From positions 354 to 31,630 of the forward strand of contig JBBIGR010000050.1 of assembly GCA_037447435.1 (NCBI GenBank): DNA of 31,277 nt, read 5' to 3'. The stretch is from Fibrobacteria bacterium. Its GTDB lineage: Bacteria; Fibrobacterota; Chitinivibrionia; Chitinivibrionales; FEN-1185. Below the pieces are notes generated by a model, which had not been told where the DNA came from, made no database searches, and saw only the letters and a program-made list of their open reading frames with translations. How positions within the stretch are numbered: position 1 is the first letter of the stretch; every line of letters starts with the position of its first letter. A program made the translations under genes and the position numbers. Positions 29,676-30,212 of this stretch are shown in pieces.

Positions 29676-30212
29676 ATGGTAAAACTTTTTCTGAAGATTT
29701 TTACTACCGCCAAAACGACTATCCCGGTGAACGACACGTCCCTCAGGCAAACCGAAATAATTGCAATCGGGGAAAAAATCCAGGACAAGGTCAAGCGATT
29801 GTTCAACGGCTCCCTTGCGATACGCCAGATTGACGCAGGATCCGACAATGCCTGCGAGCAGGAACTCGTCGCATTGTCCAATTCTTTTTACGACATCGAG
29901 CGTTTCGGCATCCATTTCGTAGCCTCACCGCGCCATGCCGATATGCTCATGATAACGGGACCCGTTACCAGAAATATGGTCAAGGCCCTGAAAAAATCTT
30001 ATGAAGCAACTCCTGAACCCAAAATCATCGTTGCGGTCGGAGACGATGCGATATCCGGCGGATTGTTCAGGGGTTCTTATTCGGTATCCGACGGCGCACA
30101 ATCGGTCGTTCCGGTACAGTATCATATTCCGGGCGATCCGCCCTCGCCCCAAACGATTTTGTTTCATTTATTGAACATTCTGGAAACGCTCGTCGACAAA
30201 ACAAAAAAATAA
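29676..30212 (+). CDS. NuoB/HycG/HyfI-family small subunit of a hydrogenase-4-like (Ehr-type) complex, with atypical ligands
   Basis: SLAIRQIDAGS, YDIERFGIHFVASPRHAD, TGPVTRNM, YEATPEPK..VAVG and IPG.PP motifs. Expected Cys are Asp at residues 57, 124 and 154. Confidence 0.9.
   Translation: MVKLFLKIFTTAKTTIPVNDTSLRQTEIIAIGEKIQDKVKRLFNGSLAIRQIDAGSDNACEQELVALSNSFYDIERFGIHFVASPRHADMLMITGPVTRNMVKALKKSYEATPEPKIIVAVGDDAISGGLFRGSYSVSDGAQSVVPVQYHIPGDPPSPQTILFHLLNILETLVDKTKK

Follow-up and report, generated by a model that had tools for sequence, protein, structure and literature searches.

Ehr complexes are widespread and assumed to be oxidoreductases, and their function is unknown. In the passages of the literature that deal with them, the large subunit is described as related to those of the group 4 hydrogenases and as lacking the Ni/Fe-binding residues (PMC6349859, PMC10284858). 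The function is called unknown there (PMC7894505, PMC10284858, PMC10432482), or is either called unknown or mentioned in passing (PMC4758237), and redox coupling is assumed in one of these accounts (PMC6349859). A monophyletic CPR clade of Ehr, whose large subunits lack the metal-binding Cys, has also been described (Jaffe et al. 2020, PMC7304191). In passages of that paper and in its Fig. S6b legend, only the L1/L2 regions of the large subunit are treated; a change in the small subunit, the subunit set and a link to ATP synthase are absent from these parts. As for a Cys-to-Asp replacement in the small subunit EhrS, no paper was found in a literature search conducted largely outside the subscription journals.

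Such a replacement is found in a DNA stretch of 31,277 nucleotides from a Fibrobacteria bacterium (contig C50 of the 5.05-Mb genome G000), which is referred to as the window hereafter. The ehrS gene (29676..30212, + strand), supported by its ORF, Pfam, a structural model and alignments, encodes a NuoB/HycG-like small subunit of 178 aa with the ligand pattern D-C-D-D. An earlier reading, which was made from the sequence only, had claimed that this protein carries the motifs GSDNAC, VGDDA and PGDPP and a single Cys, and that D57, D124 and D154 are encoded by GAC at 29844, GAT at 30045 and GAT at 30135, respectively. The translation of ORF 29676-30212 agrees with all of this. D57 (29844..29846, +) is situated at the first cluster-Cys position, directly before helix 58-68 of the model; C60 (TGC, 29853..29855, +) is the sole Cys left in EhrS; and D124 (30045..30047, +) and D154 (30135..30137, +) are situated at the third and fourth cluster-Cys positions, the latter being followed by Pro-Pro. 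The assignment of these aspartates to cluster-ligand positions was likewise confirmed by phmmer alignments, in which D57, D124 and D154 stand opposite Cys of MbhJ (6cfw_J) and HycG (7z0s_G), and C60 falls on the remaining cluster Cys.

EhrS was assigned to Pfam PF01058, and its score is under all the NCBIfam NuoB cut-offs. Its predicted structure shows the NuoB/MbhJ fold (pLDDT 83.7), with an rmsd of 2.1 Å against 6cfw_J. In the contigs of run X1, which is possibly the source run and thus not independent, no alternative letters occur in ehrS. A change in the genetic code, which the sequence-only reading had already denied, was rejected: since four other paralogues in the same genome retain all their Cys, the standard code is used, and the ferredoxin-type ORF in the window (20462-21244) has normal CxxCxxC motifs. 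A sigma-70-like promoter match (10/12; 29546..29574, +) is located about 100 bases upstream of ehrS; it is a consensus match only, three such sites being found where 1.1 were expected by chance. No ion-sensing riboswitch was found upstream of the operon, the search giving tRNAs only in 20 loci and one chance match in the window. Divergently from ehrS, the region 25383-29347 of the window carries an acetate-CoA ligase (ADP-forming) type gene and an acetyl-CoA hydrolase/transferase gene fused to a GNAT domain.

In the full-length Asp-type relatives, the genes are arranged in the order of small subunit, HyfB, HyfC, HyfE, HyfF and large subunit (S-B-C-E-F-L). In the window, ehrS is followed by the 5′ half of hyfB/ehrA (30220..31223, +), which encodes an antiporter-like subunit and is interrupted by a multicopy insertion sequence of 1423 bp, whose left end lies at 31224..31277 (+). 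The rest of the operon, namely the 3′ half of hyfB, hyfC, hyfE, hyfF and the large-subunit gene, is located outside the window, at G000:C37:56-5711 (locus L081). The ends of contigs C50 and C37 are both covered by this one 1423-base element in the same direction, and the 3-base target duplication at 31221-31223 is repeated beyond its right end on C37. Among the 11 left and 14 right element ends found, these are the only ones sharing this 3-base flank. Thus, from the matching element ends and the shared flank, the insertion sequence starting at 31224 was concluded to split hyfB. Ends of this insertion sequence sit at contig ends across the host genome, where the flanks pair contigs. An insertion-free hyfB allele was sought in the contigs of two runs, which drop rare variants, and neither a joint nor a loose end was found. 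With hyfB split, this genome's copy of the operon has probably lost its activity. The remaining five operon genes have full open frames; therefore, the insertion probably happened recently, after the Cys-to-Asp substitutions.

The absence of redox ligands extends through the operon. The large subunit is homologous to HycE (E 7e-65), and a check for Ni-binding CxxC motifs gave none, both of the HycE pairs being replaced. Among the non-Cys-type subunits, CxxC occurs in none of the small subunits (0/39), HyfB (0/31), HyfE (0/25), HyfF (0/27) and large subunits (0/26), and is found in 3 of 28 HyfC subunits, not shared among them. No ferredoxin ORF, and hence no NuoI-like partner, is present within the operon of the full-length Asp-type loci or of this genome. 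Furthermore, among 94 ORFs flanking the non-Cys loci (two per side where present, those of >700 aa being left out), the ferredoxin and formate dehydrogenase families gave no match; MrpE/MrpF/MrpG-like ORFs were found neither there nor in the operon. A pyridine nucleotide-disulphide oxidoreductase gene lies two genes upstream in one locus (L017). The proposal of the sequence-only reading of a complex-I-like ion-translocating machine with a possibly non-redox core is supported, such a non-redox machine being likely.

A related loss was seen in five ferredoxin-fused non-Cys relatives (P0158, P0238, P0252, P0265 and P0297): the proximal-cluster Cys are lost, and the first ferredoxin motif has lost Cys too, the second motif being whole. 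By NuoI numbering, we take the missing cluster to be the entry cluster and the kept one to be that next to N2.

The residues of the ion channels are kept. In the HyfB subunits of the non-Cys operons, TM5 Glu is present in 30/31, and TM7 Lys, TM8 Lys and TM12 Glu are present in 31/31; in HyfF, TM5 Glu and TM7 Lys are present in 27/27, and TM8 Lys is missing in all 27 (Asn in 19 and Pro in 8). The acids of HyfC are kept in 27–28 of 28 and the Glu of HyfE in 24/25. A difference between the two Ehr types is seen at HyfF TM12: the four-Cys operons have Glu there in 75 of 77 cases, against Lys in 21 of the 27 non-Cys operons; the six non-Cys operons with Glu here all have Thr or Ser at EhrS position 57. 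We take the combination of HyfB TM12 Glu and HyfF TM12 Lys to be the MrpA/MrpD pattern. In the large subunit, H175, E180, D229, R467, K515, Y521 and D525 never vary in the Asp type and are almost as constant in four-Cys Ehr, where they are numbered one lower. Residues 155-204 and 504-526 of the predicted large subunit have pLDDT <50, the large-subunit site being of low confidence, and no pocket geometry was given by the model. Some relatives show additional genes: an extra hyfF copy directly after the large-subunit gene (L004 17223-18680), a CBS-domain gene and a CitMHS/ArsB-family permease gene after the large-subunit gene (L010 12519-14335 and L011 15655-17424), two transposase genes between atpC and ehrS (L011), and a stand-alone PTS-EIIA gene upstream of the Asp-type operon (L003).

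The same replacements are found in many other genomes. We defined the close set as the best 120 of 7998 matches, the query included, the other members being 68–79% identical to EhrS; every protein in this set lacks at least three of the four cluster cysteines. A clade with D-x-x-C...D...D therefore exists, and the patterns among the best 120 of 7998 are DCDD in 97, DCDN in 18, DVDD in 2 and DCED, DADD and DCEN in one each. By position, these 120 have D at 57 in all, C at 60 in 117, D in 118 and E in 2 at 124, and D in 101 and N in 19 at 154. Non-Cys small subunits were found in 28 of 80 GTDB loci and 10 of 80 metagenome loci, the other 52 and 70 loci having the four-Cys form. The named carriers are mostly Patescibacteria, with an Endomicrobiales, a Methanoregula and Deltaproteobacteria and Chloroflexota records besides. 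Loci L008, L016 and L024 are labelled Rikenella or Gammaproteobacteria and their Ehr genes group with Patescibacteria; two of these genomes are of 0.7 and 1.1 Mb, and the labels or bins may be wrong.

Both Asp codons are in use at every Asp site across the non-Cys relatives. Of 561 gene pairs, 10 have unsaturated synonymous sites, and their dN/dS values were 0.07–0.23, with a median of 0.165; between ehrS of this genome and its relatives the synonymous sites are saturated (pS 0.81–0.95, pN about 0.15). Together with the sharing of the same residues by more than 100 relatives, these results agree with the earlier claim of selection rather than decay or error: the Cys-to-Asp change in ehrS is real and is under purifying selection.

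The operon appears to have reached this host from elsewhere. No match of >53% identity was found in 60 relatives of the host, and the 19 Ehr loci from these relatives are all of four-Cys types, one being partial. The GC3 of the operon (0.55–0.65) is like that of the host genes (0.56–0.66) and exceeds that of 8 of the 10 relatives' genes checked. In the tree of HyfC, HyfF and the large subunit (14-row set), this operon nests among Patescibacteria operons with a support of 100. The operon was likely acquired laterally long ago, from Patescibacteria or in a transfer shared with them, the tree being unrooted as to direction.

As to the number of origins, the small-subunit tree (95 rows, 138 columns, with the ligand columns removed) needs eight changes, three of which are forced by strong branches. 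A single origin was not rejected for the small subunit (p 0.082) or for 39 operons under LG+G4 (p 0.14), and was rejected for 26 operons under a mixture model (AU p 0.021), where 12 near relatives and one long branch had been dropped. In the trees of HyfC, HyfF and the large subunit, which contain no hydrogenase outgroup, two models separate the Methanoregula type from the Patescibacteria type; the Methanoregula branch is long in the operon trees. Judging from these trees, the cluster was probably lost at least twice. The Methanoregula-type Ehr (L029 3609-10468, L146 and L129) has the pattern DTDN or DADN and the small-subunit gene last; L029 and L146 have HyfF TM12 Lys, and a beta carbonic anhydrase gene lies about 1.4 kb upstream in L029.

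ATP synthase genes accompany the operon in part of the loci. They were found in 10 of 38 non-Cys loci (nine by tblastn and the tenth by Pfam) as compared with 0 of 141 four-Cys loci, a comparison in which many loci are short, the four-Cys control genomes are larger and kin are not independent. In 28 of 38 non-Cys loci no ATP synthase gene is present, and the locus of this genome has none either. In one locus (L013 7585-19275), the Asp-type operon is placed within the ATP synthase operon, with atpG on one side and atpD on the other. Among 301 evenly sampled Patescibacteria genomes, a tally that takes in the unpublished genome G241, on which no conclusion rests, a complete non-Cys subunit occurs in 7, which include the centre genome; one partial and one close four-Cys form were found besides. 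All seven carriers have atpD, as compared with 176 of the 301 sampled genomes (Fisher p about 0.04, kin not being independent). With seven carriers against 176 genomes with atpD, the complex is rejected as a general energy source for the Patescibacteria ATP synthase; it accompanies ATP synthase and is a rare accessory in Patescibacteria. A Ser or Thr after the Glu of the ATP synthase c subunit marks Na+ binding. Na+ coupling via ATP synthase was rejected, as the c subunits of the carriers mostly have no Ser/Thr after this Glu (4 of 30 loci gave no segment or a wrong one). In the host genome, contigs C6, C29, C11, C25, C66 and C5 carry two F-type ATP synthase sets and a third, more distant ATPase, as well as two more group-4-like operons and complex-I-like genes, the last on C5.

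What the aspartates may do can be judged from the composition of the pocket. For this purpose, the loci and 50%-identity representatives were pooled, giving 62 complete sequences that have one Cys or none and 212 that have all four, leaving out rows missing a ligand column and a few sequences with two or three Cys. In the 62 non-Cys sequences, position 57 is D in 42, T in 11, S in 4, N in 3, E in 1 and C in 1; position 60 is C in 39, E in 8, A in 6, V in 5, T in 2, P in 1 and I in 1; position 124 is D in 48, G in 9, A in 3 and E in 2; and position 154 is D in 46, N in 12, S in 3 and A in 1. Two or three carboxylates occur at the four positions in 57/62, four in 0/62, and one or none in 5/62, while Lys, Arg, His and aromatic residues are absent from them in all 62. 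Glu60 is paired with Gly124: it occurs in 7 of the 9 Gly124 rows versus 1 of the 53 remaining rows. Some relatives have no Cys at any of the four positions (DADD, DVDD, DPDD, DTDN and TEGD). The pattern SAES represents a 19-member cluster, and TCGN and SVGN are acid-free at the four positions. The suggestion of the sequence-only reading that the site binds an O-ligated cluster or a hard cation fared less well than its other claims: no position is strictly acidic in the 62 sequences, and five have at most one carboxylate.

The residues D, T, S and N are the usual ones at helix N-caps and turns, and a [4Fe-4S] cluster with four thiolates carries a charge of −2 or −3. The replacement pattern fits helix/turn capping with a stand-in for charge at least as well as metal binding. 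Because of this cluster charge, the place of position 57 at a helix start and the capping nature of D/T/S/N, we favour, over a cation site or an odd cluster, the reading that the carboxylates fill the pocket and take over the hydrogen bonds and the charge of the cluster; it is given about an even chance of being right. The wider reading receives similarly balanced confidence: EhrS would belong to a six-subunit Ehr without any Fe-S or NiFe ligand set, likely a redox-free, proton-coupled ion translocator in which the aspartates stand in for the hydrogen bonds and the negative charge of the cluster. EhrS would then bind no Fe-S cluster, and its carboxylates would cap the backbone and keep the charge near −2 to −3 where the small and large subunits meet, the binding of the two being assumed from homology. 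The peripheral arm would stay as a structural and gating part, proton flow via HyfB and HyfF would be coupled to a second ion or solute, and the complex would serve pH or ion balance beside an H+-type ATP synthase. One point against the stand-in is that acids are fixed at positions 57 and 124 in 120/120, and C60 is kept in 117/120, of the nearest proteins (best 120 of 7998), as a metal site would be. The five of 62 sequences with fewer than two carboxylates, the lack of MrpE/F/G-like genes in the operon as a second ion path and the missing HyfF TM8 Lys also speak against the wider reading, as do the few carriers among the Patescibacteria and the many loci without ATP synthase genes.

This fixation is one argument for a hard cation. 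The three aspartates, with the nearby E61 or D123, may bind Mg, Mn, Ca, Na, K or mononuclear Fe in place of the cluster, the site having a structural or regulatory role and the complex being redox-free in this case as well; we hold this to be a possible but less likely explanation. By homology to MbhJ and HycG, the four former ligands meet in one pocket, the Glu60/Gly124 swap retains a carboxylate in it, and E61 is invariant in the EhrS alignment (A1). However, the farther relatives tolerate T, S, N, G and A at these positions, to the extent that the patterns SAES, TCGN and SVGN exist, and C60 is exchanged for one of the poor ligands A, V, I, P and T.

Another alternative concerns the job of the complex and is compatible with either the stand-in or the cation reading of the pocket. 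Proton flow may be coupled to a reaction other than redox where the nickel-iron site used to be, such as CO2/bicarbonate conversion, with the small-subunit carboxylates acting as a proton relay or an electrostatic switch. The DAB and CUP pumps are a precedent for such a conversion coupled to proton flow. We regard this alternative as rather doubtful. In its favour, the constancy of the seven large-subunit residues in the Asp type, and their near-constancy in four-Cys Ehr, implies a kept site; however, no Cys/His set for Zn is present at the old site, and the conserved residues could be structural. The neighbouring genes point in the same direction: genes of the SulP anion transporter family are found near 17 Ehr loci, 16 of the four-Cys type (L032, L040, L042, L043, L046, L047, L052, L053, L059, L072, L080, L125, L132, L152, L159 and L178) and L017, and carbonic anhydrase-type genes flank two non-Cys loci (L006 and L029). 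On the other hand, about 12 of the 17 SulP loci have one arrangement and are mostly Methylococcales kin, and the 141 ORFs beside 41 four-Cys loci included no carbonic anhydrase. These neighbours give a weak lead towards inorganic carbon.

A combined picture can be drawn, which we offer as an improbable but far-reaching one. The complex would be a complex-I-like pump without electron transfer, in which a carboxylate pocket took the place of the N2-type cluster on two or more occasions, in the Patescibacteria and Methanoregula types, both with a Glu-to-Lys change at HyfF TM12, and proton flow would be coupled to a non-redox reaction, e.g. of CO2/bicarbonate at the former nickel-iron site. If this is true, oxidoreductase would be the wrong label for the entire Ehr family, and in some Patescibacteria ATP synthase would be fed or drained by a cofactor-free partner.

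It is very unlikely that an Fe-S cluster is still bound, by three Asp and one Cys, in an oxidoreductase whose donor is encoded elsewhere. Fe-S clusters with one Asp ligand are known, 117 of the nearest 120 proteins (best of 7998) retain C60, and an Fe-S scaffold is encoded by 15 of 28 carrier genomes (SufBD in 2 and IscU/NifU in 14). Against this, no Fe-S cluster with three carboxylate ligands is known to us, relatives exist without Cys at any of the four positions, the operon has no donor module or acceptor cofactor site, and neither scaffold was found in 13 of 28 carrier genomes, which are incomplete. A host devoid of Fe-S assembly was rejected as a general cause of the replacement, in view of the 15 carriers with a scaffold and the four-Cys paralogues in this genome. 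Lastly, the view that the operon is dying and the substitutions are decay, or that they are sequencing errors, might draw on the cut hyfB of this genome. It is refuted for the clade as a whole by the shared residues in near relatives, the use of both Asp codons and the dN/dS of about 0.17, and in this genome the other five genes have full open frames.

The conserved Ehr form without a cluster ligand set implies that the electron wire is droppable, with the pumping parts and the large-subunit site retained. It makes testable what Ehr does and whether the coupling machinery of complex I can run without redox input, and it is relevant to how a minority of Patescibacteria handle ions. A paired control for metal analysis is also at hand: a four-Cys Ehr with a fused ferredoxin starts 4.8 kb past the large-subunit gene of the Asp-type operon on C37. 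This second operon (L081 9762-17830) has a ferredoxin-fused small subunit and is preceded by an HTH and PTS-EIIA regulator gene.

Compared with known systems, the operon has the composition of Ehr. Its large subunit is related to group 4 with the Ni-binding CxxC pairs replaced, and Mrp-like antiporter subunits, HyfC, HyfE and the large and small subunits are encoded, split over C50 and C37. Ehr large subunits are closer to this one than those of hydrogenases or complex I: a large-subunit orthologue (L001) shares 66% identity with this subunit, as compared with 39% for that of the four-Cys Ehr of this genome, 30–32% for two further group-4-like subunits and 25% for the NuoCD-like one. The nearest described group is the CPR-specific Ehr clade, which likewise has a group-4-related large subunit without metal-binding Cys, in Patescibacteria. 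As far as the published description goes, the operon is like it, grouping with the Patescibacteria Ehr apart from other Ehr, whereas the host, with its 5.05-Mb genome, is different.

The cluster-bearing Ehr, exemplified by Geobacter sulfurreducens GSU0739-45, the Rhizobium and Methylobacter loci and G000:C37:10505-17830, has the same six subunits, no Ni ligands, and the same channel and large-subunit site residues as found here. Its small subunits differ in having four Cys (212 complete rows), often with a fused ferredoxin, while EhrS here has one of the four; the small-subunit gene is mostly last in the four-Cys Ehr loci and first in the Patescibacteria type. The group 4 [NiFe]-hydrogenases (MBH, 6cfw; E. 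coli formate hydrogenlyase, 7z0s) have the small-subunit fold and motifs in common with EhrS, and the large subunit and HyfF are homologous to HycE and MbhH, respectively, but the Ni-binding CxxC pairs, the proximal-cluster Cys set and a ferredoxin-like subunit are missing here. Respiratory complex I (NuoB, NuoCD, NuoH, NuoK and NuoL/M/N) shares the fold family and the chain of charged membrane residues, but the N2 ligand set, NuoI and the NADH module are missing, and EhrS is below the NuoB cut-offs.

In the Mrp Na+/H+ antiporter and the DAB inorganic-carbon pump, antiporter-like subunits work without electron transfer. The MrpA/MrpD-type charged residues are present here except for HyfF TM8 Lys. 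Mrp has MrpE/F/G and no peripheral arm, and DAB has the carbonic-anhydrase-like DabA; the operon here has, instead, a NuoH-like subunit and a hydrogenase-like arm. The complex is a variant of the known Ehr complexes, probably a cluster-free one, and is neither a hydrogenase nor complex I.
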